This document shows positions 1,113-30,331 of a DNA stretch of 64,000 nt, one piece after another. The stretch comes from a phage, in the sequence record PV636258.1. One strand, given 5' to 3'. The position numbers and the translations under genes are program-made. The notes under the pieces are model-generated. The model ran no database searches. It was not told where the DNA came from and saw only the letters and a program-made list of their open reading frames with translations. Within the stretch, counting starts at the first letter, position 1; the number at the start of each line of letters is the position of its first letter.

Positions 1113-1520
1113 ATGCGTTATGTAGACCGCATGCTCGGCGAAAATGAACATGTCATCGCTTTCACCCGCCCGACTTGGTGGAGCGGTTTTTGGATTTATG
1201 TTCTGGTTATTTTAACGATTATCCCAACATTTGGATTCAGCTTGTTATTTCTGATACCAACAATTTTAAATGTGTTGACAACTGAATTCGCAGTCACCAA
1301 CAAGCGTGTTATTGTCAAACGGGGATTTATTCGTCGTGATGCTGATGAACTCCGTCTTGGTAAAGTAGAAACCATTAAGGTGGACCAGTCTATTACAGGC
1401 CGTATCTTGAAGTTTTCGACCATCAGTGTTATTGGTACGGGCGGTACTCGCCTGTTGGCTACAGGTTGTGCTAAAGGGAACGAATTCCGTCAAAAAATTT
1501 ATGATCATCTGGGTGACTAA
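1113..1520 (+). CDS. Membrane protein, bacterial PH-like
   Basis: N-terminal hydrophobic hairpin (two predicted TM helices) then soluble domain; AAGGAA SD before ATG. Confidence 0.45.
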   Translation: MRYVDRMLGENEHVIAFTRPTWWSGFWIYVLVILTIIPTFGFSLLFLIPTILNVLTTEFAVTNKRVIVKRGFIRRDADELRLGKVETIKVDQSITGRILKFSTISVIGTGGTRLLATGCAKGNEFRQKIYDHLGD

Positions 1521-1739
1521 ATGATTACTGCAGGATACACCGTCGATTTGTATTGTGAGTGTGTTGAATGCAAATCTTGTAATTGGGCTTGGGAAGAACA
1601 TCACCCCAGATGTGGGATGAAGTCTTATGCTGGTGAATCTTGGGGAGACTGTGCTAGACAAGCCCGTGCTGATGGGTGGATGATATGCAGGGACAAACAA
1701 ACTTGCTTTGCCCCTGGACATCCAAGGAAATCAGGGTAA
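1521..1739 (+). CDS. Small Cys-rich protein (possible zinc-binding)
   Basis: 72 aa with several Cys including CECVECKSC; ATG start immediately after previous stop. Confidence 0.4.
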   Translation: MITAGYTVDLYCECVECKSCNWAWEEHHPRCGMKSYAGESWGDCARQARADGWMICRDKQTCFAPGHPRKSG

Positions 1740-2351
1740 TAACAAACCATCATCTTCCGATTGCGTTGGTTGTTTATTAGCAGTTTCCTTCTTCATTTGC
1801 TCTTTCAACGCATTAATCCTTTGAGCGCGGCGTCGATCTTCCATTTCGACTTCGCGCTTTTTCTTAGAACGAAGAGCAAATTGTTTTTTAACTTCTGGGT
1901 CTTCACCTGGCACCAAATGTTCTTCTGTCCAGATAATGAATTTCCAACCCACCTTTGCACAATGTTCTTTAGTTGCTGTCCACTTTGCCTGATTTACCAA
2001 CCAAGTGCGCATTGAATTATTGAATGTTGATTCCTTCATCGTTTTAGTTTTGCGAGGTTCTTTAATCTGGTCTTTGGGTTTTATTTCAATAAGAGTAATT
2101 TGTAATTCATCGGAATCCTGCCGACGAGTCCAAACCTTCAAATCCATGAAATAACGATGGGCGCGGCCATCAACCGGAGATATGTAAGGGATTACACAAG
2201 TTTCCGAACCCCACTTCACGATAGCAGGATTCATGTCACAGAATTTGAATGCAACCAATTCTAAAGAGGAACGAAACACGATATCTTTTACGTCTCCGAC
2301 ATATTTTTGAGGATTTACGGGGACATACTTCCCCTGCAAATACATAGCCAT
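1731..2351 (-). CDS. gp4-like head completion protein (PD-(D/E)xK-like N-terminal domain)
   Basis: Pattern FRSSLEL...VKW.SE...IPY...HRYF.D...IEIKPK resembles the T4 gp4/gp50/gp65 family as recalled; AGGA SD. Confidence 0.5.
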   Translation of the reverse strand: MAMYLQGKYVPVNPQKYVGDVKDIVFRSSLELVAFKFCDMNPAIVKWGSETCVIPYISPVDGRAHRYFMDLKVWTRRQDSDELQITLIEIKPKDQIKEPRKTKTMKESTFNNSMRTWLVNQAKWTATKEHCAKVGWKFIIWTEEHLVPGEDPEVKKQFALRSKKKREVEMEDRRRAQRINALKEQMKKETANKQPTQSEDDGLLLP

Positions 2352-2404
2352 ATTCTAGTCCTAAATAGTGTCATCACTCTATTCTAATTAAAGGGCTTCA
2401 GACC

Positions 2405-3373
2405 ATGGCGAATTTCAAGTCGACCATCGATAAGATCAAAGTTCTGAACACAAAAGGCTTGGCCAAGTCTCAGAAGCAATTGGTCTATCCATTAGACATA
2501 ACAGGGGGTAAAACCCTGGGCCATTATGTTCTATTCAACATCAACCGAATATCTGGTTCTTCATATGGGGACACCACAACCCAAACCGTCGAAAATCCGA
2601 TACAAAATCCATTGGGTAAGACTCCTGTGGTTTATGGTTCTAAATCGGGGTCTATTAGCAAATATGCTTGGGCGCGTCATGTCCGCTCTAACGAGTCAAT
2701 CGTGTTGTGTATGCCCGAATCCATTACAACCAACTATGGCGTTGGTTGGAACGGCTCCGAGTTGGGATTAGCAGGTATGGGTGCCCAATTCTTATCACGC
2801 GCCGCCCAAGATATGAGTCAATTCAAACTTGGGGATGCTTTGAATGTTGGGAAAGAAATGGGGAGATTTGCGGCAACAAAGGCCATTCAATCTGCTTCGG
2901 AAGCAATTCCTTTCTTGCCGACAATTAATGCTCATGATACATTAGAATTGTTTACAGGTACGATGACCAACCCGTATGTGGAAATGATTTTCCAAGGGGT
3001 GCGCAACCGAGAAATCCCGTTCACATTCAAATTCACTCCAAGATCGCAAAAAGAGGCGAAAATGGTGCGGGAGATTATCCGTTTATTCAAGATGCACATG
3101 TATCCAGAATACAAATACAACAAGAATTCCAGCGCATTCTATCTTCATCCATCCACGTTTGATATCACGTTCATGGTCCAGGGAGAACGCAACAAATGGT
3201 TGCATCGGATATCGACTTGCGTCCTATCAAATATGTTTGTCAACGAGACGCCTGACTCTTCATATGCTGTACACAAAGATGACAGCATCGTGTCGACACA
3301 AATCGACATGACGTTTATAGAACTAGAACCGTTGCACAAAGGCCGCTTTGATACCGAAGGCGACAGCTTCTAA
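2405..3373 (+). CDS. Hypothetical protein, possible virion/baseplate-tail junction component
   Basis: 322-aa ORF in a plus-strand block divergent from the gp4-like gene; beta-rich composition; function inferred from position only. Confidence 0.4.
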   Translation: MANFKSTIDKIKVLNTKGLAKSQKQLVYPLDITGGKTLGHYVLFNINRISGSSYGDTTTQTVENPIQNPLGKTPVVYGSKSGSISKYAWARHVRSNESIVLCMPESITTNYGVGWNGSELGLAGMGAQFLSRAAQDMSQFKLGDALNVGKEMGRFAATKAIQSASEAIPFLPTINAHDTLELFTGTMTNPYVEMIFQGVRNREIPFTFKFTPRSQKEAKMVREIIRLFKMHMYPEYKYNKNSSAFYLHPSTFDITFMVQGERNKWLHRISTCVLSNMFVNETPDSSYAVHKDDSIVSTQIDMTFIELEPLHKGRFDTEGDSF

Positions 3374-3386
3374 GGAGAAAGATGCC

Positions 3387-3944
3387 ATGAAATATTTTGA
3401 GAAATTTCCACTCGTGTGGCATCAACTAATTGGTGTCAAAGAGGATGACCAAGTCCTGTTGCAGAACTTAACACGACGGGTTATGGTTGTTAAGAAAATT
3501 AGGGACATAGAAGGGCTTCTCCTGCCGTATACTGTTTTTGATGGGGAAACCCCAAGGTCTTTTGCCGAACGCGTCTACGGTTCCTTCGAGCTGTTTTGGA
3601 TCCCATGTCTTATCAATGGTATCATGGACATCGCAGAGGACTGGCCAAAACCAGAGCGCCGTATCATTGAAGAACTGACGGCTCGATACGGCCTTGACGG
3701 AATGTGGGATGTGAAATACTATGTTGACGAATTCGGTCATGAAACAGATCCTAGAGCAATACGTTTAGCATATGGCCTTGGTTCTATGGATGATTCCACG
3801 ATTATCGCCAACTATGGTCTGACAGGTATTACATATCATGATGATGCTATAAACAAAAACGAAGCCAAACGGAATATTCAGGTTCTAGACCCAGATTATG
3901 TTTCTTCCTTTGTTAATCAGCTGGAACAGGAGCTGACCAAATGA
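3387..3944 (+). CDS. Hypothetical protein
   Basis: ATG at 3387 with AAGGAG SD 9 nt upstream; the track start at 3348 is TTG. Confidence 0.45.
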   Translation: MKYFEKFPLVWHQLIGVKEDDQVLLQNLTRRVMVVKKIRDIEGLLLPYTVFDGETPRSFAERVYGSFELFWIPCLINGIMDIAEDWPKPERRIIEELTARYGLDGMWDVKYYVDEFGHETDPRAIRLAYGLGSMDDSTIIANYGLTGITYHDDAINKNEAKRNIQVLDPDYVSSFVNQLEQELTK

Positions 3945-5329
3945 TCGAAAATAAAGAATCCCAGGACGGAATTTTAACTCCGTCCACAACATTTGATTTG
4001 AAATATATGGCGATATTACCACACACGCCTGAAGGCGGTACTCCCAAGCCTTATGACCTTTCATCGTTGTTTCAAGAATTCAACGTATATCAGGATCTTG
4101 GTCTGGAAGGGAATGCTTCACCGTCGCTGACAGCTAATATTCTGATCAAAGAAGGCTGGGATATATTGGATACAATGCCAATCCTCGGAGGTGAGGAAGT
4201 AGTGGTATCGTTCAAATCTCCTGCAGCTTCTGATTACACTACGCTTTCATTGCGAGTCAGTCGGGTAGGAAGAGTTGCTGATGAATCGAACTCTTCTTCG
4301 AAAAAGGCATTCTGGTTACACTTGGTAACAACAGACGCGTATCGAGATAGCATGTTGCGTAAATCTCTTGGATTAAGCGGTTCTTATTCTGAGATGGCAG
4401 CTAAGATCTTTGAGCAACTGAATTCACGCACCAAATTTGAAGACATAGATCCTTCATATGGGATACAAGAAAGGTTCGCTACCCCTCTTTGGCCTGTACT
4501 CCGCTCCATAGATTATATGGCCAGCCGTGCATATGACGAATTATTCATGCCGTTCGTTTTCTATGAAGACTTTACGGGTTATCACTTCAAAAGCATGACG
4601 ACGTTGTTCAACCAGGGCAACCAGTCTATGACTGCTGAAGAGAAGCAAGAGGCTTCTATTGAAAAGAAATTCTTCCGAGACCCTCAAGACGCGCCGTTGA
4701 TGCAGGATAACAATTTCAACTCAGAACGTTTCATGCGGACTATAATCAAGGCTGAAAAGAAACTGGCGCGTGATCAATACATGGCGAATTATCGGGATAT
4801 CTTGGCAGTGAACGAGCGCGTGTATGACTTTAGTACAAAATCCACGACAGCGACCCAACGCATTTATTCAGAATGGTTTGACAGCACTGCTCACCTTGAT
4901 CCTTTCCCTTTGTTCTCTGATCAATTCGACCGCGAGAACGTTAGGTACATTGAAGCGCAACCGGATGGTGCCGAACAAATAGATTACGCACGACGCGTTA
5001 TAGAATTCAGCCTCGCGTCAACGGTTATGCGTTTGCTGGTCGTGGGGGATAACCGTCTGAATGTTGGGCAGGTTTATTATATTGAAGATTTGTCGAACCG
5101 CCCGAAATCTAATGAAAACATTGCCGAGTTAAGTAAGTTATCAACAGGCCATTATATCGTCACAAAGATACGCCACAAGATTTCACGCCTGACAAATGAT
5201 TATCAATGCGTCGCTGAGATTGCCAAAGATAGTATGATCCAGAAGGTCTTACCGCCTCAGACTGGTCAAACTGTGGCTTCTACACCAACTCCGACGCCAA
5301 TAGAGAAAGGACAAGCCCAGAAGGTCTGA
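3941..5329 (+). CDS. Hypothetical protein (462 aa), possible structural
   Basis: ATG overlapping previous stop (ATGA); no motif recognised. Confidence 0.45.
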   Translation: MIENKESQDGILTPSTTFDLKYMAILPHTPEGGTPKPYDLSSLFQEFNVYQDLGLEGNASPSLTANILIKEGWDILDTMPILGGEEVVVSFKSPAASDYTTLSLRVSRVGRVADESNSSSKKAFWLHLVTTDAYRDSMLRKSLGLSGSYSEMAAKIFEQLNSRTKFEDIDPSYGIQERFATPLWPVLRSIDYMASRAYDELFMPFVFYEDFTGYHFKSMTTLFNQGNQSMTAEEKQEASIEKKFFRDPQDAPLMQDNNFNSERFMRTIIKAEKKLARDQYMANYRDILAVNERVYDFSTKSTTATQRIYSEWFDSTAHLDPFPLFSDQFDRENVRYIEAQPDGAEQIDYARRVIEFSLASTVMRLLVVGDNRLNVGQVYYIEDLSNRPKSNENIAELSKLSTGHYIVTKIRHKISRLTNDYQCVAEIAKDSMIQKVLPPQTGQTVASTPTPTPIEKGQAQKV

Positions 5330-5339
5330 GAGGTGACAA

Positions 5340-7280
5340 ATGGCAGATAACAATCAACCGACACCAGGGCAGCAAGACATCGTCAAGGTTTTGGATAAAA
5401 TCAAAAAAGAAATGATGGAGCGCAAGCAATTGCGCGCCCAATCCGAGACGAATAAACAGCTCGCAGATGTCAACAAACAACTGCAATCTCTGAAGACACG
5501 CCAGGCGTCTAATCAGGAGCAGAAAGTACCGCCAATTAAATTCCCATCGGTGAATGACATCGTCGGTGGGTTCGTTCGCGTTAGTCCTATTTTCACAAGG
5601 GACTATAGCACGTGGATGAAAGACACTGTCAGCCTTTCCAAGGACGGAAATGAAGAACTGATGCGAATCGCAACCAAAATAGAAAAATTTGGCGAAGCGG
5701 CGAATGGTCCTGTTGATGATATGTCTGTTGAATATCTTGACATGATATCAGATCAATTGGGCGCGGCCAACGAAGATAGTCTTGAACGCCTTGATGGATT
5801 AAAGGATAAGCTGGCGTTGGTCGGAGGGGAGATCGTAAACCTGACTGACATAATGCTTCAAACGCATAAGGACACGCTGGATTTCAATAAAGATGCCAGT
5901 AACGAAACTGTTACCCGCCTCGACAGCATTGATGACAAATTGGGATACATGAACGAAGATCTTAATGATACTCTGACACGTATCTATGAAAGTGATCAAA
6001 AATATAGAGAAGAAGAGAAATTCCGTCGTGGCGAAGAAGGTAAGGAAAACAAGAACAACCCAGAGGCTGGTTCTATCCCTCCGTCTGAGCCTAAACAAGA
6101 TGGTCAATCTTCTGGGTTAGGCGCGGCGCTGGGGGCACTCCTTGGACTGGGTGCGTTAAAACTCCTGATGTCCCCATTAAAACTTGTTGGTGGCTTCATT
6201 AAATTATTCATGGGGTTTGGTGCTGGGATCGGCGGGTTGCTTGCGCCTCTGAAAGCAGCAACCAAGATGCTTCGAGTTGGACCTCTGGCGTTAATAACAT
6301 CTGTATTTGAATTCGGTAAAGGTTTCTTTAATGCTAAAGAAATCCTTGGTAAAGCGCAAGTATCGATCGTTGATCGGGTTCAGGCAGGGATAACAGAGCT
6401 GGTCGGTAGTTTCGGGGATCTCGCTGATTGGGTTGCTGAAATATTCGGATGGAACAATGCTGGGTTTGGAAAGGCGTTCCGTGAACAAGTGCTGAAAATG
6501 ACCGAAGCGCCCGTGCGTTGGTTGAACTCGATTGTTGATTGGGTCACCAACGATTTGTTTGCGGGTATCGGGAAGAGTACATCACTGACCGAAATCCCTG
6601 GTAAACTTGCAGACAACTTACAAGGCCAATTGATAAAATTGGTTGATTGGGTAACGGGCGGAATATCAGGATTGATTGATGATGGCATGGCGGCTGCAAA
6701 TAAAGTCGTTGAAGATATGAAGAAAGGATTTGCGGAAAACGTGAAGAAACCATTCTTTAATATGTTGAATGCCATAACCAATGCCATGTTTGATATCGTG
6801 GATAAATTCGTGAGTATCATACCTGATGCTCTGGGTGGTGAAGCAGCCAGGAACAAAATGGCGGAAGCAAGACAGTCTATGCTAATCAGCCAAGACGATA
6901 AGGCTCCTGAGAATGCGTCTACGCCGCCAAGCAGTCAATCACCAGCACAACCCAATGCCAATATCAGCACGTTAACTCCGATGCCTTCTGGGGTGTCCTC
7001 AGACGCTGTCAACGTTACGGATAGAACTTCACAATTGAAAGACGCATACGCGGGAATTGGGGGAGGTACTCTGGGCGGGGCTTATCCGGTTCAAGGAAGA
7101 GCAGCCAATAACATCGAAGAAGTTAAATCCGCCTATGCTAACCCGCCAGCCAGTGTTGTGGTTCCAGTACAACAAAATGTGGACAACTCGAAGAAAGTCA
7201 GTACGACGAACAACTTCAATAGTTCACAGTTGGAGCCGTCCAACCGTACTGATACAGGGCGCATTCTCTGGGATTGGTAA
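5340..7280 (+). CDS. Large coiled-coil protein with central Gly-rich hydrophobic segments (tape-measure-like or membrane-active protein)
   Basis: 646 aa; N-terminal heptad-like repeats rich in D/E/L/K; central stretch GLGAALGALLGLGALKLL...GFGAGIGGLLAPL; GAGAGGTGA SD. Confidence 0.5.
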   Translation: MADNNQPTPGQQDIVKVLDKIKKEMMERKQLRAQSETNKQLADVNKQLQSLKTRQASNQEQKVPPIKFPSVNDIVGGFVRVSPIFTRDYSTWMKDTVSLSKDGNEELMRIATKIEKFGEAANGPVDDMSVEYLDMISDQLGAANEDSLERLDGLKDKLALVGGEIVNLTDIMLQTHKDTLDFNKDASNETVTRLDSIDDKLGYMNEDLNDTLTRIYESDQKYREEEKFRRGEEGKENKNNPEAGSIPPSEPKQDGQSSGLGAALGALLGLGALKLLMSPLKLVGGFIKLFMGFGAGIGGLLAPLKAATKMLRVGPLALITSVFEFGKGFFNAKEILGKAQVSIVDRVQAGITELVGSFGDLADWVAEIFGWNNAGFGKAFREQVLKMTEAPVRWLNSIVDWVTNDLFAGIGKSTSLTEIPGKLADNLQGQLIKLVDWVTGGISGLIDDGMAAANKVVEDMKKGFAENVKKPFFNMLNAITNAMFDIVDKFVSIIPDALGGEAARNKMAEARQSMLISQDDKAPENASTPPSSQSPAQPNANISTLTPMPSGVSSDAVNVTDRTSQLKDAYAGIGGGTLGGAYPVQGRAANNIEEVKSAYANPPASVVVPVQQNVDNSKKVSTTNNFNSSQLEPSNRTDTGRILWDW

Positions 7281-7943
7281 TTAAATTCCGTGGGCAAGGA
7301 TTAGCTCACGGAGTTTTCCTTTTGTGTATTCTGTGTTTTCATCAGGAACAACTGAATTGGTTTTCTTTAATAAAAAAGACTCAGAGTTCCAATAGATGTC
7401 ATCCTTGAGTATTGTATCATATAAATGGATGAAACCCACTACTTTATTCAATCCAACGAGAAACCAAATTGGATAGCGTTTAACAATAATATCTGTCAGT
7501 AAAGGTGGATGCCCATTACCATTTCCTTTGATATATTGGATAAAATTCACGCCTCTTTCTTTTATCTCAGGGATCATATATCTCTCAAAATGTTCAAGAA
7601 AATTATATGAGAAGTTGTCATACAGGCGGCGATATTCATTATAATTTTCTTGGGCCTGTCTTGTAAGTAATGTTGTCACCCACGTCTTTGGTGATTTAAC
7701 AAAGTTGGCAATAATATAATTTTCCACCACTTCACCTTGGGACGATTCGAACCGACGAGCAAGTTTAGCAAATTGTTTGGCCACGCCCTGTTTAGAATAG
7801 AACGTTTCAAACTTGTAATTGTTCATCGGTCCATACAGGCCATAATCAAAGTCTTTTGTGGTGAAATGCAATTTGATCGCCATATAGATGCAATAAACGT
7901 TGAATGCCCTTTCATATTGCATTTTCTCCCACTCAGTTATCAT
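7281..7943 (-). CDS. gp59-like helicase loading protein (tentative)
   Basis: 220 aa; N-terminal pattern Y.IYMAIKLH...Y resembles T4 gp59 as recalled, and size matches (T4 217 aa). Confidence 0.4.
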   Translation of the reverse strand: MITEWEKMQYERAFNVYCIYMAIKLHFTTKDFDYGLYGPMNNYKFETFYSKQGVAKQFAKLARRFESSQGEVVENYIIANFVKSPKTWVTTLLTRQAQENYNEYRRLYDNFSYNFLEHFERYMIPEIKERGVNFIQYIKGNGNGHPPLLTDIIVKRYPIWFLVGLNKVVGFIHLYDTILKDDIYWNSESFLLKKTNSVVPDENTEYTKGKLRELILAHGI

Positions 7944-8086
7944 GGAGTTTCTCCTTGCGTTTCTGTCTTTGAAGTCGGTGACGTTCTGAGCAAAACTGGT
8001 AGTACTCAGACAGCAATCCTTTCTCCTTTATAAAGAGAATGGCGTTTCGAAAAGCAATTCCAATCTTGGCATATGACGGCGGATTT

Positions 8087-8350
8087 TTACCAACCACGTG
8101 ATCTCTCCTCTGATTTAACGAAACGTTGAAACTCTTCTGTTTTTCCTTGGCGATGAATAAACACCAACGCCAAAATAAAACGACGGAATGATTTTGGGAT
8201 AAGACGATAGCCGTTGGTCCAATTATAAACGACATCAGAACAATTCATCATCTTCATCATTTGCAATTCAGAAACTCCCAACTCCCGCATAATGGTTAAG
8301 AGATGTAATGAGTCATTATTCTTTCTTGGTTGTTTGTCAACAAGTTTCAT
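8087..8350 (-). CDS. Hypothetical protein
   Basis: 87-aa ORF with ATG start; preferred over the overlapping W/C-rich 7933..8235 ORF. Confidence 0.35.
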   Translation of the reverse strand: MKLVDKQPRKNNDSLHLLTIMRELGVSELQMMKMMNCSDVVYNWTNGYRLIPKSFRRFILALVFIHRQGKTEEFQRFVKSEERSRGW

Positions 8351-8427
8351 AATAACACCTGGTAATGATTTCTTGGAATTATACTGCTACTGTCTTTATT
8401 GAATGGGGTTCCGAAGAACCCCAATTT

Positions 8428-9855
8428 TCATGCCGCTTCCAACAACACCAAAATATTTTCGATATATGCTTTCTGGATAGCATAGACTTCAGCCAGTGTA
8501 TTAGCGACTTTCTTGTCTGTGCGTACTTCAACGAGACGTGGAAGGAATAGAGACTTCATGGCGTCATCGGTTTTATCCTGTACGCCATTAGAGAGCACGG
8601 CGGCAATCTTACCAATGAAGTCCTCTTGGTTTTCCCACATTCGTAGTCTCAACTCATCTGAGATCCCCGATACGCCAACAACTAAGAGGCCATCAGAGGT
8701 CTTGCAGAGGAGAGATCCAAATGTCTTGGCGTGCTTCCCTTTCTTATCGGCCTCGTTGAAGCCAACGATTTCAAGGTCACATTCTACTTCCATTTTTAGC
8801 TTTAACCCTTCAGATGATGTTCCATCTTCCCAAGGCATATCTGCGGCCTTACAAATCGTGCCTTCTTCCCGACGAGCCAAAGCGTCTTTGAAGTGTTCGA
8901 CAGCTTCTTCAAATGAATGAACAACACGGGTTTCTTGAACCTGAACCAGTCCGTCATCCCCTTCGAACAACTGTTGTATGATATCAAAACGGCGCTCATA
9001 TGGGGTGTCCACACGCTGAGCATTGAACCAATTATCATACGGCACAACGTCCCATACCCGATAGATCACCTTGTAACGATCTTCCAGGGGTTCACCCGTT
9101 TGGATAACACTGTTGAGCTTACCATTGCCGATAGCCCGAGGCAACACTGTATTCGTTTTCAGATCAATGACGAGCAGTTCACCATGGAAGACGCTTTCAC
9201 CAATCCCCGCATCGTAGATCAGGTCTTTGAAAACCAATGATAGGTTATCAACGGAACCACCCGCAATAAGAGAACCGGAACGAGAACGAATCTCTGGGTC
9301 TCTTCCATAACGACAGATGATGTTGGCAAACATGCCATCTGACTTCAGCTGGCTGAAGACGCCGCGCTTGAAGTCCATCTTCTTCAGCAAGTCAATCGTC
9401 ATGTTATCATAACGGTGATATGGAAGGATATTAATCAGACGCCCTGTACCACCTGCTGCGTTGAATGCTGCGTTTATACCTTTCTCGGCAATTCCCGCTT
9501 TGATGTCTCTGTCGAGTATAATTTGTATCAGGGTACGGTAATCCGGATGGATGTTGGTTGCAGCCTTCGCAAGTTCTTGATCTGCCTTCATCCCACCGAT
9601 CTTGCGTTCGGCCATCATATCGAGAACATCATAAACCTGATCCCAGCTACCAACAACGCCGCGCGAGAGCATGCGAGGGAATGCGTTTAGATTGAATTGA
9701 GTGCGGTAATAAGAACGCATCGGGTCGTAGACGTATTGAAGGAAATCAACCAATTCTGGGTTGTTTCTGAACGCCTCGGTCAGCACAGCTTTCTTGGCGT
9801 TGGTGCCTTTGGTATCGCGAAGATTTTGAATTATTTCTAAAAGAGGAAGCATCAT
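8428..9855 (-). CDS. 30: ATP-dependent DNA ligase (T4 gp30-like)
   Basis: 475 aa; N-terminus MLPLLEIIQNL...TKGTNAKKAVL parallels the T4 ligase N-terminus; candidate adenylation lysine in KSDGM; GGAGAC SD. Confidence 0.8.
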   Translation of the reverse strand: MMLPLLEIIQNLRDTKGTNAKKAVLTEAFRNNPELVDFLQYVYDPMRSYYRTQFNLNAFPRMLSRGVVGSWDQVYDVLDMMAERKIGGMKADQELAKAATNIHPDYRTLIQIILDRDIKAGIAEKGINAAFNAAGGTGRLINILPYHRYDNMTIDLLKKMDFKRGVFSQLKSDGMFANIICRYGRDPEIRSRSGSLIAGGSVDNLSLVFKDLIYDAGIGESVFHGELLVIDLKTNTVLPRAIGNGKLNSVIQTGEPLEDRYKVIYRVWDVVPYDNWFNAQRVDTPYERRFDIIQQLFEGDDGLVQVQETRVVHSFEEAVEHFKDALARREEGTICKAADMPWEDGTSSEGLKLKMEVECDLEIVGFNEADKKGKHAKTFGSLLCKTSDGLLVVGVSGISDELRLRMWENQEDFIGKIAAVLSNGVQDKTDDAMKSLFLPRLVEVRTDKKVANTLAEVYAIQKAYIENILVLLEAA

Positions 9856-9913
9856 GTGTCTCCAGGGTTATTCGTCATGCTATTATAACCCTAGAGACTT
9901 CAATAGAATTATT

Positions 9914-10252
9914 CTAACTCCTTTCCTTGACAGAAGTGAAAGATTCTTTCCATCCTTTAAATTGTTCGGTCAGGGATTCTTTCCCCATTTCCCCATTGGA
10001 AACGCTATGGATATATGCAAATGCATCGTAACCATAACCAGGCATTGCTTCACAAATACGAAGAGAGACCAATGTTTCGCCAACAGAAACCAGATAATGA
10101 TCACGGCGATGGCTCAAAGGATAGTGATTGTCATGGAATTTGTCGATAACAACGCAGTTCTGGGGTTCGGCGTCAATTGCCAGCCCGTTGGCTTCGCTAC
10201 CGCCGCGCCCAAGGGTGCATCCTGGGAATAATGTTTCTACGAGTGTGGTCAT
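9914..10252 (-). CDS. Hypothetical protein
   Basis: 112-aa ORF on the strand of the flanking genes, ATG start. Confidence 0.35.
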   Translation of the reverse strand: MTTLVETLFPGCTLGRGGSEANGLAIDAEPQNCVVIDKFHDNHYPLSHRRDHYLVSVGETLVSLRICEAMPGYGYDAFAYIHSVSNGEMGKESLTEQFKGWKESFTSVKERS

Positions 10253-10253
10253 A

Positions 10254-10463
10254 TTACTTCCTCATCATATTCAATAAATTAATTTTACCCTTTGCTTCTG
10301 GGGCATACCAAACGTTCTGAGAGTGCCTCTTACAGCACGGACAATCCTTGGTGGCAATTACACAGGGAGCCTTGTCCACGGCATATCCAGCGTCTTCGGC
10401 TTCCTTGACGGTGTTAAATGGCAAGTATGCACTTGTGCCTTGCCCTCCGCATGAACATTCCAT
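10254..10463 (-). CDS. Small Cys-rich protein
   Basis: 69 aa with CSCGG and CPCC clusters. Confidence 0.4.
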   Translation of the reverse strand: MECSCGGQGTSAYLPFNTVKEAEDAGYAVDKAPCVIATKDCPCCKRHSQNVWYAPEAKGKINLLNMMRK

Positions 10464-10579
10464 CAGCGTTTCCTCTTAAAGGGGATGATCAGGGCTATGA
10501 TTAACAGCATAGCTGTGATCACTCCGCATGCGATAAGACCGAATGCAAATGATTTCAAAACAAATTGAAAAATAATCAT
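10463..10579 (-). CDS. Small hydrophobic membrane peptide (38 aa), absent from the ORF track
   Basis: ATG overlaps the TGA of the upstream 397-aa gene and its stop overlaps the next ATG; translation MIIFQFVLKSFAFGLIACGVITAMLLIIALIIPFKRKR. Confidence 0.35.
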   Translation of the reverse strand: MIIFQFVLKSFAFGLIACGVITAMLLIIALIIPFKRKR

Positions 10580-15936: not shown

Positions 15937-16481
15937 TAGAACTCCAGAGTCAGAGGGGTTTCGGCAGACTTGTCATAGTTCGCACCGCCAGCAGCACGTA
16001 GACGATTGCGATCGTTTTTGCGCTTGTGTGCCAGCATGTAGGTCTCAGCATCCAGCCCCAAATATCCGCAAGCCGCTGCCAAGAAGGTAGCCAAAACATT
16101 CCGAAGAGGGTGTGACATGAAATACGTGAACAGTTCAGTCACTTTCCTGAGGTCGTTAGGGGTTTGAATTGGCTGCGCCTGAACGAATCTCACCATTTCT
16201 GGAATATCGTGTGGTTTGTCTTCCTCCTGCAGGACAGCACAGAGCATGAAGTGAACAACGTCCACCAACTCGTATATGGCATCCACTTGTCGCCAATGCT
16301 TACCACCCCCATAGATCTTCCAGTCTATGGTTGTTTCGTCTAGAAACTCTGCCCACTCACGATAGATGGAGTTTGCTATCGCCACTTCGGTCCAGCGCTT
16401 CTTCCACTCTTCCCCAAAATAGGCCACGTTGGTGGCCTTTTGAAGTTCGAGCAGACTTTTAATATGCTCTGCTGTGATCAT
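15936..16481 (-). CDS. MazG-like all-alpha NTP pyrophosphohydrolase (gp56 dCTPase/dUTPase-like)
   Basis: 181 aa; helix with ELVDVVHFML resembles the T4 gp56 family as recalled; translationally coupled to neighbours. Confidence 0.5.
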   Translation of the reverse strand: MITAEHIKSLLELQKATNVAYFGEEWKKRWTEVAIANSIYREWAEFLDETTIDWKIYGGGKHWRQVDAIYELVDVVHFMLCAVLQEEDKPHDIPEMVRFVQAQPIQTPNDLRKVTELFTYFMSHPLRNVLATFLAAACGYLGLDAETYMLAHKRKNDRNRLRAAGGANYDKSAETPLTLEF

Positions 16482-17047
16482 TTCCGATCCCTATAAAATT
16501 TGACGAACGGTTGCCAACCTTCAAACGGATTGACAAATTCATAATCAACTTCCATCTTATCAATGAAAGCCTCAATGTCATCCTCTATGATACCACCGCG
16601 ATCCGCCTTTGAAATGCGGGTGATGGGACATTTAGTGCTCAGCGCCCATTCATATTCCTGAGGGGTGCGCAAATCACTCACGATATAATGAACGTGTGGG
16701 TTCTGTTCCACCAAAGGAAGTTGATATCGTTTAAAGAATGACAGAAACAGGTCTGGTTGTACGTAACGCAAGCCCGTATCGCTGCCGAGATGAAGCCAGA
16801 TCTGCCGTGGAGTTAATCCCTTGGGGTTATCAGGGTGAACATATGGCAAGTCCTTGATGTCGTCCTCTACTTCCTCTGGCAACCAAGGATAGATGTAATG
16901 AGCCACCCGACGCAACTCGTCTGAGAAAGATAAGCGCTGGATGTCCATATCACCCTGTAAATGGTGAAAGCTGATGAGGGACTCCAAACAGAAGTCCTTG
17001 CCGGAGCGCTTGCGCCCCGTAAAGAATTCCAGATTAGGGTATTTCAT
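16478..17047 (-). CDS. 1: Deoxynucleoside monophosphate kinase (T4 gp1-like)
   Basis: From the ATG at 17047 the N-terminus MKYPNLEFFTGRKRSGKD matches the T4 gp1 P-loop GVKRSGKD; the track start at 17062 is GTG. Confidence 0.7.
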   Translation of the reverse strand: MKYPNLEFFTGRKRSGKDFCLESLISFHHLQGDMDIQRLSFSDELRRVAHYIYPWLPEEVEDDIKDLPYVHPDNPKGLTPRQIWLHLGSDTGLRYVQPDLFLSFFKRYQLPLVEQNPHVHYIVSDLRTPQEYEWALSTKCPITRISKADRGGIIEDDIEAFIDKMEVDYEFVNPFEGWQPFVKFYRDRK

Positions 17048-18084
17048 TCCCCATACCCCCACATGTGTTTACGGTCAACGGGTGATTGTAACAACGCATT
17101 ACGAAGACCATCATCAGCAATCCGACGTTTATCAATTTTAGTATCATTAAGGCGACACCACAGACAATATGACATATCCATCATCAAACCTGTATCTGCG
17201 TTATATTCCTTCAAATGCTCTCTGATTTTACCAAATTCACTGCCAATGTCACAGTGATGAAGTACACCGAGGAACAGATTTTGGATGTTTTCTTGACATT
17301 TCACCTTTTCCGAAGAGAATTCCAACAAAGAATTGTACATACCAGTAGAAGTTCGGGTCTTGTTGGTTATGTTCCCGAGTTGCTTCCGACTGACTTCGTT
17401 GTTGTAATAGTGAAGGTTATTCGAGAACAGTTTATAATTCCCGACTTCCACGTTCAACACCTTCGCCAATACTTCCTGCAAAATGGAGAATTCAATGAAG
17501 TTGATTGAACTCATACCCCAGAGGACATCCTGACTTCGATTGATGACCGTGATGTTCAACCGCCCTTCTGTTATACTGAACAATAAAGCCAGATTACAGA
17601 TCATGTCTTTAGTCTTGGCTTCTCCTGTTTCACTATGCGCGGCCAAACTTTCATCTGAGTCCAGAGCTGGATCATAGATGGTGAGATACGCCTGACGGGT
17701 GTTGGGGTTATTGCGCAAACGGTTGATGACACTATTCAGCTGGCCATAGTTGTACAGGCGTGGTCCGTAAGCACCACGCCACGTTACGCCATCATCCGAG
17801 AAGTTGACCGCACGAGGGAGGACTCGGGAAAGGAAACGGATGTCATTGCGGCCTGACAGAACCCAGAATGTTTCACCAATCGCAGCAAGCGCAGATGAAT
17901 TACGACCTTCAACAGATAACCAACGATCTCGAGGGTCAGCCACCGTAATCGTCACGCCATCAATAAAACGAGTGCCGTCAGTGTTAATCTCTGCGTTGCC
18001 AGGATCTGACTCAATCCCGTGTTCACGGATAGCCAACACAGCTTTCTTCAGCATATCATTATTGTTTAAAGCAAAAATCTCCAT
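17044..18084 (-). CDS. Thymidylate-synthase-fold pyrimidine deoxynucleotide hydroxymethylase/methylase homologue with about 110-aa C-terminal extension
   Basis: TS-family blocks: candidate catalytic Cys in DMICNLALLF (vs PCHAFFQF), NRSQDVLWG (vs QRSCDVFLG), NNLHYY (vs GDTHLY); 346 aa from the ATG. Confidence 0.7.
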   Translation of the reverse strand: MEIFALNNNDMLKKAVLAIREHGIESDPGNAEINTDGTRFIDGVTITVADPRDRWLSVEGRNSSALAAIGETFWVLSGRNDIRFLSRVLPRAVNFSDDGVTWRGAYGPRLYNYGQLNSVINRLRNNPNTRQAYLTIYDPALDSDESLAAHSETGEAKTKDMICNLALLFSITEGRLNITVINRSQDVLWGMSSINFIEFSILQEVLAKVLNVEVGNYKLFSNNLHYYNNEVSRKQLGNITNKTRTSTGMYNSLLEFSSEKVKCQENIQNLFLGVLHHCDIGSEFGKIREHLKEYNADTGLMMDMSYCLWCRLNDTKIDKRRIADDGLRNALLQSPVDRKHMWGYGE

Positions 18085-18746
18085 CAATCAATACTCCCAA
18101 AATCACGATTGAGAAACGCAAAAACAGCCTGCTCTACAGTCAGGCCATCGGACTTCATCATACCTGCAGCCACCGTAGGGAACAAGCCTTTATGCCGTTG
18201 ACGGTGATCATGAACTCTCTCCCACTTCTCGACCACCAGACTTTCATTGAAGTCTGCGCCACCGTTACGCGATTTAACACGGGCAATACAGGTTTCAAGA
18301 GGGGTATCCATAAAGAGGACGACCAATTCACGTGGTGGGCGTGTCAGGCGGGGAATCCAAGAACTCAATAATGTAGACGGAATGATGCCTTCGAAAATCA
18401 CATCATATTTCAGGTATTCTGGTTGGTCAGCAATAGACAACGCGAACAACATCTGCTCAGTATCCTTCAGAGAATCAACCCCTTTGGACTTAGACTTGTC
18501 ATATTTACCGACACAGACAATATTGTAAGATGGACAAACCGTGAGCATGATCTTACTGTTATGGGTTACGACATACGCCTGAGGATCATTCTCCGCCAAA
18601 TAAGAAGGCACAGTAGACTTACCACTACCATTGGAGCCTTTAATGTAATACAACTCTCCTCGTGCCGAATATTCCCCTTCTACAGCAGGTGGTTTGACAA
18701 ACAAATGAACAGGGCGCTTCAACAGCCCTTTGAGCGAATAAGACAT
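18084..18746 (-). CDS. P-loop kinase (nucleotide or DNA kinase, specificity unknown)
   Basis: Walker A GSNGSGKST; stop overlaps the ATG of the TS-fold gene; ATG at 18746 (track start is TTG). Confidence 0.5.
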   Translation of the reverse strand: MSYSLKGLLKRPVHLFVKPPAVEGEYSARGELYYIKGSNGSGKSTVPSYLAENDPQAYVVTHNSKIMLTVCPSYNIVCVGKYDKSKSKGVDSLKDTEQMLFALSIADQPEYLKYDVIFEGIIPSTLLSSWIPRLTRPPRELVVLFMDTPLETCIARVKSRNGGADFNESLVVEKWERVHDHRQRHKGLFPTVAAGMMKSDGLTVEQAVFAFLNRDFGSID

Positions 18747-18818
18747 GACATGCTCCAATAAACAAAAGGAGCTGCTATTATAGCAGCCCCTTTATCTATT
18801 GAACGCTTCTGAATTAAA

Positions 18819-19778
18819 TTACGCAGCAGCTTTCGCTTCGGCCAACGCCTGTGGTAACCATTCATTGATTGCTTTCACCAGAGATTCGGCATCAGTTTCT
18901 TTGATTTTCTGGCGTTTGGTGAATGATTTACCATTCACATACAGACTGAACCCCCAGCCGCCGGAAACGATCGGCGCCAGATCAACATAAGTATTGGTGC
19001 GGGCGTGTGGATTGGCTTCATCTGCCAATTCGGTAACAGGGAACTGGAACCAGCGCATATCCGGATTCACATAGCTCAAATAAACCCCAGGCACAACCCC
19101 CGATTCAACCGCAGCCAGGATAGGACCATAATTGGATGCGCGAGCCGCTTCAACCATTTCTTCACGCTTGTTATGACGACGCTTGCGTTCTTCGGTAGAA
19201 GATGCAGGGCGCATTTCAGAAGATTTCTTGGCCAGAACCGCCTTCGCGTTCGCTAAAGCCTGATCATCCTTCGGATTTTCAACGTCGGCGATTGCTTCAG
19301 CAACGGTTGTGCCCAGCATACGACGGCGAACTTCTTCAGCACGGGCTTGCGCTTCTTCGTCAAGAACTTCTTCGCCTTCAACTACCAGGGAAATGGAACC
19401 GTCTTTGTTGACTTCAAGAGAACCGTCTTCGACGGTCTGGGAATTTTGATCACCGACAGGTTGCCCAACCGTTTCTTCGGCGTCAATCACCGGATTTGAT
19501 TCACCGTCGCCCTGTTTAACCCCCGCATCTTCGGTCGGTTTAACTTTTTCGGCTTCAGCGCGGTCAAGAGCTTCGAGAGTCTCTTCTTTCTCTTCCTGGC
19601 TCAGACCTTCGATGAGTTCAAAGCCATTGGCTGACTGAAGGACGCCTTCCATCATGCGGCGTAATGTTACATTGCCAATGATAAGGTCTGCACCTTTAAT
19701 TTCTGCTTGAAGTTCAGCAGCGGTTTTACCATCAATTTCAAATTTCAGGCCGGACTCGATATGAAGAATATAGGACAT
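18819..19778 (-). CDS. Hypothetical protein with acidic central linker
   Basis: 319 aa; N-terminal domain, D/E-rich low-complexity middle, C-terminal domain; preceded by early promoter. Confidence 0.5.
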   Translation of the reverse strand: MSYILHIESGLKFEIDGKTAAELQAEIKGADLIIGNVTLRRMMEGVLQSANGFELIEGLSQEEKEETLEALDRAEAEKVKPTEDAGVKQGDGESNPVIDAEETVGQPVGDQNSQTVEDGSLEVNKDGSISLVVEGEEVLDEEAQARAEEVRRRMLGTTVAEAIADVENPKDDQALANAKAVLAKKSSEMRPASSTEERKRRHNKREEMVEAARASNYGPILAAVESGVVPGVYLSYVNPDMRWFQFPVTELADEANPHARTNTYVDLAPIVSGGWGFSLYVNGKSFTKRQKIKETDAESLVKAINEWLPQALAEAKAAA

Positions 19779-22765: not shown

Positions 22766-22767
22766 AA

Positions 22768-22783
22768 AGCCCCCGAAGGGGCT
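22768..22783. terminator. Bidirectional stem-loop (AGCCCC-CGAA-GGGGCT) between convergent genes
   Basis: Inverted repeat flanked by A-tract on one side and T-tract on the other. Confidence 0.5.
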
Positions 22784-22792
22784 TTAGCGAAA

Positions 22793-29611: not shown

Positions 29612-29992
29612 ATGAAAGAGTACAAGGACATTGACCTGAAGTTTGGCATGCATCCGGTCACCAAAGATGTCACTAAGAAAACAGGCATTTATGCTGTACT
29701 ACAATCTGTGCGAAATATCGTGATGTCGACGGTAGGTGATTGGCCGACATATCCGAGTATTGGGGCAGGGTTGTATACCATGTTGGGGGAAAACACAAAT
29801 CCCACGATACAGGTCGACGTGAAGAACAAAGTTGAAGATGCCATTGCTCTTTTTGAGCCAAGAGCTGAATTGCAATCTGTTGATGTATCATTGTCGGACG
29901 ATTATCATTCTCTGGGCGTAACCATCACGTTCTATGTGGTCAACAACCCAGAGCCGATAACAGACACCATATGGTTAAAACGCACAAACTGA
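29612..29992 (+). CDS. 25: Baseplate wedge protein, gp25-like (GPW/gp25 family)
   Basis: 126 aa from the ATG at 29612 (track start 29579 is GTG); size and position next to the gp5-like gene; AAAGGGG SD. Confidence 0.55.
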   Translation: MKEYKDIDLKFGMHPVTKDVTKKTGIYAVLQSVRNIVMSTVGDWPTYPSIGAGLYTMLGENTNPTIQVDVKNKVEDAIALFEPRAELQSVDVSLSDDYHSLGVTITFYVVNNPEPITDTIWLKRTN

Positions 29993-30331
29993 TTAAGGTG
30001 CGTTGGTATTGGAGCGGTTGGTAATTATTTCAAAATGCGTCAGTAAACGGTACAGTAATTTCCCACCTATTCTATGGACTATGGTGGTTGACTTTAGGTT
30101 AACCACCACACCATCTAGTCTCCCCGTCAACACAAATGTTAAACGAATGCGAAGGATATCACTGCCTTCAGAACGCATTATTTGACAGTCATGGATGTAC
30201 CCTATTTCTTTCCCTTTGAGGACAAGAGGAACATGTGCGCTTTCCTTTAACAGGGTATCTAAATTTTCAAATAAAGGTTCTTCTTTGTTATTGACGGAAT
30301 ACACCGTCTCTAATATCGGGAATTTATACAT
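29993..30331 (-). CDS. Hypothetical protein
   Basis: 112-aa ORF, ATG start. Confidence 0.4.
   Translation of the reverse strand: MYKFPILETVYSVNNKEEPLFENLDTLLKESAHVPLVLKGKEIGYIHDCQIMRSEGSDILRIRLTFVLTGRLDGVVVNLKSTTIVHRIGGKLLYRLLTHFEIITNRSNTNAP

Follow-up and report, generated by a model that had tools for sequence, protein, structure and literature searches.

A probable tail length tape measure gene of a Kuttervirus-like phage and a putative terminator hairpin written into the convergent gp59-like gene

The closest described counterparts of the protein studied here are the tape measure proteins of the Ackermannviridae, among them LIMEstone1 ORF27, Sajous1 gp53 and CBA120 orf047, which belong to the same family over their full length and share 57-100% identity with it. 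In these relatives, the tape measure gene likewise follows the gene for a gp27-like hub protein, and the junction with an abutting convergent gp59 gene likewise carries a terminator hairpin; we found no difference of substance between their tape measure proteins and the one encoded here. Because the tape measure gene and the terminator have both been described in close relatives, where their identity is already known, the present finding is an ordinary one.

The locus lies in a stretch of 64,000 nucleotides of phage DNA (sequence record PV636258.1; hereafter the window). Positions 4800-8300 match Salmonella phage Chennai (Kuttervirus, Ackermannviridae; MN953776) at 100% identity. The genes considered and the translation signal in front of the tape measure gene are as follows.

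2405..3373, plus strand: gp48-like baseplate tail tube cap, first gene of the operon (phrog_230, E=6e-117)
3387..3944, plus strand: gp53-like baseplate wedge subunit (phrog_232, E=1.9e-60; Pfam Phage_gp53, E=4.8e-8)
3941..5329, plus strand: gp27-like baseplate hub or tail protein of 462 aa (phrog_350 "tail protein", E=2e-102)
5330..5335, plus strand: Shine-Dalgarno-like GAGGTG, read from the sequence, 4 nt before the ATG at 5340
5340..7280, plus strand: tail length tape measure protein of 646 aa and ~70 kDa (phrog_3799; identity to MN953776)
7281..7943, minus strand: gp59-like DNA helicase loader of 220 aa, convergent (phrog_269, E=2.6e-66, residues 4-218)

The 646-aa plus-strand ORF reported in a preliminary description of this locus is present at 5340-7280, with its stop codon at 7278-7280, and its counterparts are named Chennai_084 and CBA120 orf047. 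Residues 1-646 match phrog_3799 on profile positions 1-651 (E=0, 1218 bits), and "tail length tape measure protein" is the product name in many GenBank records of relatives. We consider it very probable that this ORF encodes the tape measure protein of the family, in a Vi01/CBA120-like Salmonella myovirus (Kuttervirus), and that the protein and the junction act in the ways proposed below. In the Chennai record, as in many Kuttervirus records, the gene is named "hypothetical protein".

Orthologues of the protein have been detected in virions. Sajous1 gp53, which is identical to the 646-aa protein at 637 of 646 positions (99%), yielded 52 spectra in mass spectrometry of CsCl-purified virions (PMC10892097). 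LIMEstone1 ORF27, with 59% identity over the full length, is a structural protein confirmed by seven unique peptides in virion mass spectrometry, and ORF26 of the same phage, the orthologue of the gp27-like hub protein, was also confirmed in virions (PMC3296691). Judged from these orthologues in other phages, the 646-aa protein is probably a component of the mature virion, and the virion findings for Sajous1 gp53 and LIMEstone1 ORF27 contradict the possibility that it is absent from virions and belongs to a non-structural family.

The tape measure gene is the last gene of a plus-strand tail and baseplate hub operon, of which it is a member by position. The order gp48, gp53, gp27-like hub and tape measure, with gaps of 13, -4 and 10 nt, is kept in six genera, and the gp27-like gene accordingly overlaps the upstream gp53-like gene by 4 nt. 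The gene at 2405..3373 also matches Pfam T4_tail_cap (E=9e-5) and is called a baseplate protein in the Chennai annotation, and in LPST94 the gp27-like gene bears the product name "putative baseplate hub subunit gp27". For the gp53-like gene, the annotated start is 3387 and the mechanically called ORF starts at TTG 3348. A convincing late promoter upstream of gp48 was not found: the T4-type late promoter TATAAATA does not occur near the operon, the motif CTAAATA at 2361-2367, 38 nt before the gp48 start, was rejected as a promoter because its frequency in the window does not exceed chance expectation, and sigma-70-like matches were at chance level, so none is claimed. An Rfam scan of positions 2000-9000 returned no family.

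From the family alignment, hydropathy and structure prediction, we divided the protein into the following regions.

5340..5624, plus strand: N-terminal helix (residues 9-57) and conserved motif P69...S82-P83-x-F85...W92 (residues 61-95), from the alignment and helix prediction
5625..6044, plus strand: long helical "ruler" segment, residues 96-235, with three repeats, from the AF2 model and the alignment
6114..6260, plus strand: Gly/Ala/Leu-rich hydrophobic segment, residues 259-307, by Kyte-Doolittle
6261..6854, plus strand: most conserved helical domain, residues 308-505, with invariant Gly, Trp and Phe columns
6855..7277, plus strand: linker rich in Ser, Pro and Gln, variable in length (residues 506-580), then the conserved C-terminus (residues 581-646)

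The positions of the motif at residues 61-95 are invariant columns in the family alignment, and the N-terminal region is possibly the tube-distal or terminator-proximal end of the protein. The internal repeats that had been noticed in the translation resolve into three copies of a motif ..LD.[ILM].D.L starting at residues 131, 149 and 192; the comparison of residues 129-146 with residues 189-206 scores 46, a value reached by 0 of 2000 shuffles (23.3 +/- 4.4; z ~5). At the DNA level, the only direct repeat within the gene is a trivial 16-nt pair. Relatives carry insertions or duplications of 28-43 aa inside the ruler segment, and helical and linker regions vary in length among relatives. The glycine-rich hydrophobic core of the preliminary description is likewise borne out, with a 19-residue Kyte-Doolittle maximum of 1.77 in residues 257-307 and 33% Gly+Ala in residues 259-330; the segment at 259-307 has room for two membrane-spanning helices. 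In the C-terminus, N591, L631, N635 and W644 are invariant, and we presume, by analogy with other tape measure proteins, that this end binds the baseplate hub.

The AF2 model contains ~68% helix, including residues 9-57 and 128-236, which bear on the possible coiled coil of the preliminary description, and a longest helix of 109 residues, at a mean pLDDT of 52 (low confidence). Because the confidence of the model is low, the outcome of a Foldseek search against the PDB, with nothing below E=0.2, says little. A sequence search of the PDB matched no solved structure; the only PDB matches of the family profile, all weak, were SNARE proteins and designed coiled coils, and neither the literature nor the PDB searches turned up an Ackermannviridae tape measure structure. 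In BFVD, all seven significant matches (E<=0.001) belong to the protein's own family, four of them carrying a tape measure name, one the name "putative membrane protein" and two no name.

A kinship of the protein with tape measure proteins beyond its own family is suggested by remote relatives retrieved with the family profile. In a sample of 10 such relatives that we scanned, seven tape measure PHROGs were matched at E 1e-6 to 2e-12 (PHROGs 1272, 4200, 58, 1535, 4372, 5493 and 4070), in the region after the hydrophobic segment, and the same relatives also match phrog_3799, which makes the link transitive. The 646-aa protein itself gave sub-threshold matches to tape measure PHROGs 5448 and 4211 (E ~0.0015). 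These generic families and the window protein are all helical and variable in length. Tblastn matches in Vibrio and Aeromonas phages are limited to residues 277-512, and the domain at 308-505 is also found in tape measure proteins of those phages. In the Pfam scan, no family reached E<=0.01 and the matches up to E<=10 were noise, and the protein lacks the enzymatic add-on domains (lysozyme, peptidase) that are present in some tape measure proteins.

The gp29 family of T4, also put forward for this protein, received no sequence-level support. PF25671, the only family for T4-type tape measure proteins, which gives T4 gp29 itself 1388.7 bits, did not match even at E<=10; hhalign of the family alignment against the gp29 alignment gave a probability of 2%; the BLASTP match was non-collinear and compositional; and 0 of 133 remote relatives exceeded 11 bits with the gp29 profile, the reverse hmmsearch being equally empty. 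On sequence comparison, homology to T4 gp29 (PF25671, phrog_1283) is thus rejected. What the two proteins have alike is a gene position after gp27 within the baseplate hub module, a similar size (590 aa in T4 vs 646 aa) and a collinear layout: a helical region with internal repeats at the N-terminus, then a linker rich in Pro, a hydrophobic segment in the middle, a helical domain with Trp residues and, at the C-terminal end, a region of low complexity. As a fraction of protein length, the hydrophobic segment spans 0.40-0.48 here vs 0.38-0.44 in gp29 (residues 226-259). The shared domain order is a resemblance and not proof of homology. The gene order also differs, because T4 has gp28 between the hub and tape measure genes, where the window has none, and because gp48 lies upstream of the tape measure gene in the window but downstream in T4.

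The tape measure reading agrees with the orthologues in virions, the annotation of relatives and the helical and hydrophobic make-up of the protein. In addition, its size and helicity are in keeping with a tail of ~100 nm, taking 1.5 A per residue. Published tail lengths are 113-118 nm for the 646-aa protein, 114 nm for one of 649 aa, 120 nm for the 629-aa protein of phiMAM1 and 126 nm for the 696-aa protein of Bue1; in these four electron-microscopy pairs, which are of uncertain precision, a longer protein tends to go with a longer tail except in phiMAM1.

The exception of phiMAM1, whose shorter protein does not come with a shorter tail, would also suit a protein that serves as a virion ejection, membrane-channel or hub-plug protein while tail length is set otherwise, as would the missing homology to T4 gp29 and the fact that the hydrophobic segment and the conserved central domain, and not their flanks, are common to other phages. 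We regard this alternative as very improbable, given that the 646-aa gene is the one annotated tape measure across relatives, that no other long helical candidate stood out in the tail and baseplate clusters within the genome parts examined, that the remote relatives match tape measure PHROGs and that size and helicity suit the tail. Moreover, known tape measure proteins combine the ruler role with channel formation.

Under the tape measure reading, the protein would be made late, as the product of the final gene of the gp48, gp53 and gp27-like operon. A helical oligomer would then dock in the baseplate hub by one end, presumably the conserved C-terminus, and the tail tube and sheath would polymerise round it, so that its extended length would help to set a tail of ~115 nm. 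At infection, the tape measure protein would exit the tube, and the Gly/Ala/Leu-rich segment together with the conserved central domain would be the part most likely to enter the cell envelope and to aid DNA passage.

At the 3′ end of the operon, the zero spacing to the convergent gene holds as described, with TAA at 7278-7280 directly followed by TTA at 7281-7283 (the reverse-strand TAA). Over the first 50 kb of the window, four convergent junctions are annotated, with spacings of -9, 0, 27 and 0 nt, so that zero occurs in two of four and is not exceptional in this genome; the stop-to-stop gap is 0-2 nt in the 26 related loci where it is measurable. The convergent gene is annotated as DNA helicase loader in Chennai. 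Because no Pfam gp59 domain was found in the 220-aa protein at E<=0.01, its membership in the gp59 family rests on the PHROG profile and the annotation.

The absence of a spacer had raised the question of how transcripts from the two strands are terminated. The question is a fair one, and judging from the sequence it probably has an ordinary answer, a hairpin that looks like an intrinsic terminator of the plus-strand operon.

7283..7316, plus strand: hairpin with a 13-bp stem (6 G-C, 2 G.U) and an 8-nt loop, starting 3 nt after the tape measure stop
7314..7327, plus strand: T-rich tract TTTTCCTTTTGTGT, overlapping the end of the 3′ arm and running on beyond it

The hairpin consists of a 5′ arm at 7283-7295, a loop at 7296-7303 and a 3′ arm at 7304-7316, followed by TCCTTTTGTG. 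It had been placed at about 7294-7318 inside the 3′ end of the gp59-like gene; its presence there stands, and the coordinates were slightly off. Within 1500-10500, this is the best plus-strand terminator-like site. The plus-strand RNA folds at -19.2 kcal/mol (z = -4.6, with 0 of 200 shuffles folding as well) and carries the tail UUUUCCUUUUGUGU, so that a stem-loop and then a U-rich tract follow the stop codon on this strand. The minus-strand RNA folds at -12.9 kcal/mol (z = -3.0) and has a poorer U-tract. Two minus-strand terminator-like sites in the tape measure gene (6069-6056 and 5439-5418) were weak and indistinguishable from chance. We found nothing relevant, transcript 3′ ends included, in the literature on Kuttervirus transcriptomics (RNA-seq, Term-seq).

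A hairpin lies directly 3′ of the tape measure stop in 27 of 27 related loci from six genera. Among 15 different sequences, drawn from five genera, the proportion of paired cells is 96.9%, which is above all slid registers; compensatory changes occur in two pairs, and one pair is an invariant G.U. At the corresponding position, a "putative factor-independent terminator" is already annotated in the LIMEstone1 record. In Erwinia phage phiEa2809 (Nezavisimistyvirus), this site carries a hairpin of unrelated sequence, which covers gp59 residues that differ. The phiEa2809 hairpin has a good U-tract on neither strand.

The hairpin is carried by the codons for the last 11 gp59 residues, KLRELILAHGI, and the stop codon. 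Five genera share the C-terminal peptide R-E-L-I-x-x-H-G-I of gp59, so that coding accounts for some of the conservation at the nucleotide level, and the hairpin might be a by-product of that coding, or else an mRNA 3′ stabiliser or processing site, and not a terminator. This seems to us most improbable: phiEa2809 has other residues and yet an unrelated, equally strong hairpin at the same position, and neither the compensatory changes in two stem pairs, nor the T-tract that follows in most lineages, nor the stability relative to shuffles is what such a reading would favour.

Transcription of the operon would therefore, if the hairpin acts as its form suggests, end at an intrinsic terminator made of the hairpin at 7283-7316 and its T-tract. 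Intrinsic (Rho-independent) terminators of compact phages likewise combine a G+C-containing stem-loop with a U-tract after the last gene of an operon. Unlike typical ones, the putative terminator in the window lies wholly within the reading frame of the gene on the other strand, since no spacer separates the two genes, and is strand-asymmetric through its G.U pairs; its being written over the last 11 gp59 codons would follow from the tight packing of the genome.

A true bidirectional terminator, acting with similar efficiency on late plus-strand operon and gp59 transcripts, might be expected of a hairpin that stands exactly between two convergent genes, is A-rich on one side and T-rich on the other and still folds as minus-strand RNA, and a canonical bidirectional terminator does occur at another convergent junction of the window (22766-22792). 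We nevertheless think it rather unlikely here. Because two stem positions are G.U on the plus strand, they become C.A mismatches on the minus strand, and one of them is invariant in 15 of 15 sequences; the minus-strand fold is weaker by 1-10 kcal/mol in every lineage; and the minus-strand tail AAUUUAAUUA is a poor U-tract. Furthermore, the minus-strand hairpin lies within translated codons, where ribosomes would presumably melt it. On our preferred reading, the hairpin, whose minus-strand form is weaker and has a poorer U-tract, would thus stop gp59 transcripts leakily at best.

One speculative extension, which we hold to be improbable, is that the overprinted terminator works one way. It would stop the late tail operon and let gp59 (early/middle) transcripts run antisense across the tape measure gene, and that "anti-late" RNA would help to keep the tape measure and hub proteins off until late transcription. 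Selection for asymmetry, and not just for compactness, would then keep the G.U pairs and the 0-2 nt gap.

Beyond annotation, the significance of these results is slight; in Chennai-type records, the gene can safely take the name tail length tape measure protein. For the Ackermannviridae, they describe a family that has kept a T4-like hub module and yet has a tape measure protein without detectable similarity to gp29, which seems linked instead to generic tape measure families. They also point to a strand-asymmetric terminator within the 11 final codons of gp59, the opposing gene, in at least six genera, which would be an RNA structure overprinted on coding sequence in a compact phage genome.

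An ORF check found both genes that the preliminary description had placed opposite each other, the plus-strand one being the last of a tight block of tail genes.

Genes of the tail block and the convergent gene
2405-3373, plus strand: gp48-like tail tube cap
3387-3944, plus strand: gp53-like wedge
3941-5329, plus strand: gp27-like hub
5340-7280, plus strand: tape-measure gene, 646 aa, ATG start
7281-7943, minus strand: helicase-loader-like gene gp59, 220 aa

The same plus-strand order is found in Limestonevirus, Agtrevirus, Taipeivirus, Miltonvirus and Nezavisimistyvirus, and many records of those five genera name the last gene 'tail length tape measure protein'. From 4800 to 8300, the window has 100% identity to Salmonella phage Chennai (MN953776; Ackermannviridae, Cvivirinae, Kuttervirus), in which the two convergent genes are labelled chennai_084, 'hypothetical protein', and chennai_085, 'DNA helicase loader'; its identity to 175 further records of Vi01/CBA120-like phages is 90-99.6%. 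Gene coordinates in the Chennai record are offset by 6 nt from ~16.5 kb on (about 16480-18820), and the two sequences are therefore not identical end to end. Upstream of the block, a gene at 1113-1520 (plus strand), located between the dCMP deaminase and tail genes, encodes a phrog_3707 protein with a bacterial PH domain (bPH_2, 'membrane-flanked domain'). The gp4-like head completion protein (1731-2351, minus strand) clearly matches the Pfam Tn7_TnsA-like_N endonuclease domain (E = 1e-16). Beside gp59, the Chennai annotation apparently lacks a small gene (7933-8097, minus strand; about 54 aa); the mechanical ORF 7933-8235 (minus strand) matches phrog_7357 (E = 2.6e-37) only within residues 48-100, and the annotated 165-nt equivalent of the small gene in the relative Sajous1, gp51, overlaps the gp59 start by 11 nt.

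The 646-aa protein matches phrog_3799 over its full length, and a Pfam scan of it matched no family. A link to the T4 gp29 family (PF25671, phrog_1283), suggested for checking in the preliminary description, did not survive at sequence level: the protein did not match the PF25671 model, 26 Ackermannviridae sequences compared profile to profile with 24 gp29 relatives gave a probability of 2%, and none of 133 proteins scored above 11 bits against a gp29 profile, these being drawn from the 140 relatives recovered by searching 1.84 billion representative proteins with a profile. The reverse search was likewise empty, and membership of the T4 gp29 Pfam family is thus ruled out. The two proteins nevertheless have a collinear layout in common, with a central hydrophobic segment at equal relative position.

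Of ten remote relatives sampled, six match, in the part that follows the hydrophobic segment, a total of seven PHROG families that carry the annotation 'tail length tape measure protein', and the window protein has sub-threshold matches to two further tape-measure PHROGs. A BFVD fold search returned seven significant matches (E ≤ 0.001), all of its own family and from Salmonella, Enterobacter, Vibrio and Aeromonas phages; four of them are named tape measure. Because of these PHROG and BFVD matches, with the gp29 comparisons empty, we classed the protein among tape measure proteins on the grounds of its function and its own family, outside the T4 gp29 Pfam family.

Virion proteomics, proposed beforehand as a check, has detected two orthologues. 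Sajous1 gp53, identical at 637 of 646 residues, gave 52 spectra in CsCl-purified virions (PMC10892097), and LIMEstone1 ORF27, with 59% identity end to end, was confirmed as a structural protein, with 7 unique peptides (PMC3296691). Together with the phrog_3799 match and the hub-gene setting, these detections support the tape-measure reading: the gene encodes the Kuttervirus tape measure protein, with a putative ruler role.

The internal repeats first noticed, ERLDGLKDKL and TRLDSIDDKL, exist and begin at residues 149 and 192, preceded by EYLDMISDQL at 131; the alignment score of residues 129-146 with 189-206 was reached in none of 2000 shuffles. The glycine-rich hydrophobic core likewise could be located, at residues 257-307 (Kyte-Doolittle maximum 1.77). 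An AlphaFold2 model from 26 family members, of low confidence (pLDDT 52), is 68% helical, with one 109-residue helix and a disordered Ser/Pro/Gln-rich C-terminal third. A largely helical model with a disordered part is the usual look of an isolated tape measure protein.

In the family alignment, the ends and the central domain are conserved, and the helical and low-complexity stretches in between have gained or lost 28-43 residues in some lineages. Three members of the Ackermannviridae alignment A1 (P0030, P0036 and P0037; columns 125-170 and 219-246) are natural length variants; in P0030, the EYLDLI...RLD repeat unit is tandemly duplicated (about 43 aa), and in Bue1-like proteins 28 aa are inserted in the helical region and the Pro-rich linker is longer. 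In published work, a 646-aa protein goes with a tail of 113-118 nm, a 649-aa one with 114 nm and the 696-aa protein of Bue1 with 126 nm, the longest reported, yet phiMAM1 has a 120-nm tail with a 629-aa protein. A rough tracking of tail length with protein length among these values, phiMAM1 excepted, is suggestive only.

At the junction, the plus-strand TAA (7278-7280) directly adjoins TTA (7281-7283), which is the gp59 stop codon read on the opposite strand, so the reported zero spacing is real. How transcripts end there had been raised as a question, and a terminator-like hairpin is the probable answer.

Junction hairpin
7283-7316, plus strand: arms 7283-7295 and 7304-7316, 8-nt loop, then TCCTTTTGTG

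The hairpin does lie within the 3′ end of gp59, as first described, at slightly different coordinates; the codons under it specify KLRELILAHGI, the last 11 residues of gp59. It ranks first among plus-strand terminator-like sites in 1500-10500. Because it starts 3 nt past the tape-measure stop codon and a T-tract comes after it, it has intrinsic-terminator anatomy for the plus-strand operon. The plus-strand RNA folds at -19.2 kcal/mol (z = -4.6; equalled in 0 of 200 shuffles), compared with -12.9 kcal/mol (z = -3.0) for the minus strand, and in every lineage the plus-strand fold has the greater stability. Two stem positions, one invariant, are G.U on the plus strand and would be C.A mismatches on the minus strand. 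These pairs and the greater plus-strand stability suggest that the hairpin chiefly serves the late plus-strand transcript. It is at best a weak terminator for gp59 transcripts, and it is therefore plausible that they read on into antisense of the tape-measure gene. In T4, early 'anti-late' RNA is known.

A hairpin directly follows the stop codon in all 27 related loci (six genera), with a stop-to-stop gap of 0, 1 or 2 nt in 26 of 26 measurable loci. When 15 distinct sequences from five genera are taken together, pairing holds in 96.9% of stem cells, exceeding every slid register, and two stem pairs have changed on both sides in a compensatory way (A-U to G-C, C-G to A-U). Because Erwinia phage phiEa2809 has an unrelated hairpin in the equivalent place, over different gp59 residues, the structure appears, from these comparisons, to be selected in its own right, beyond carry-over from gp59 coding sequence. 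The LIMEstone1 GenBank record has a 'putative factor-independent terminator' at exactly the equivalent position, 2 nt past the ORF27 stop codon and inside ORF28; that study predicted its terminators with TransTerm and Mfold, looking for palindromic repeats that have a U-rich stretch. The hairpin is thus the predicted intrinsic terminator of the tail operon, overprinted on the end of gp59.

Zero spacing was rejected as a special feature, since two of the four convergent junctions in the first 50 kb of the window have it.

Convergent junctions
1731-1739: 9-nt overlap, chennai_079 (plus strand, 1521-1739) and gp4-like head completion gene (minus strand, 1731-2351)
7280/7281: 0 nt, tape-measure gene (plus strand) and gp59 (minus strand)
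22766-22792: 27-nt spacer with a canonical bidirectional terminator (AAAAAGCCCCCGAAGGGGCUUUAG), 'baseplate hub protein' gene chennai_106 (plus strand) and gp32-like ssDNA-binding gene
29992/29993 (region 29960-30060): 0 nt, gp25-like wedge gene (plus strand) and hypothetical gene (minus strand)

At 29992/29993, a hairpin (AACGCAC...GUGCGUU) spans both stop codons. On the basis of this survey, this compact genome habitually sets convergent genes end to end and places their terminators within coding sequence. Both the observation and its interpretation hold, yet each had already been documented in this phage family.
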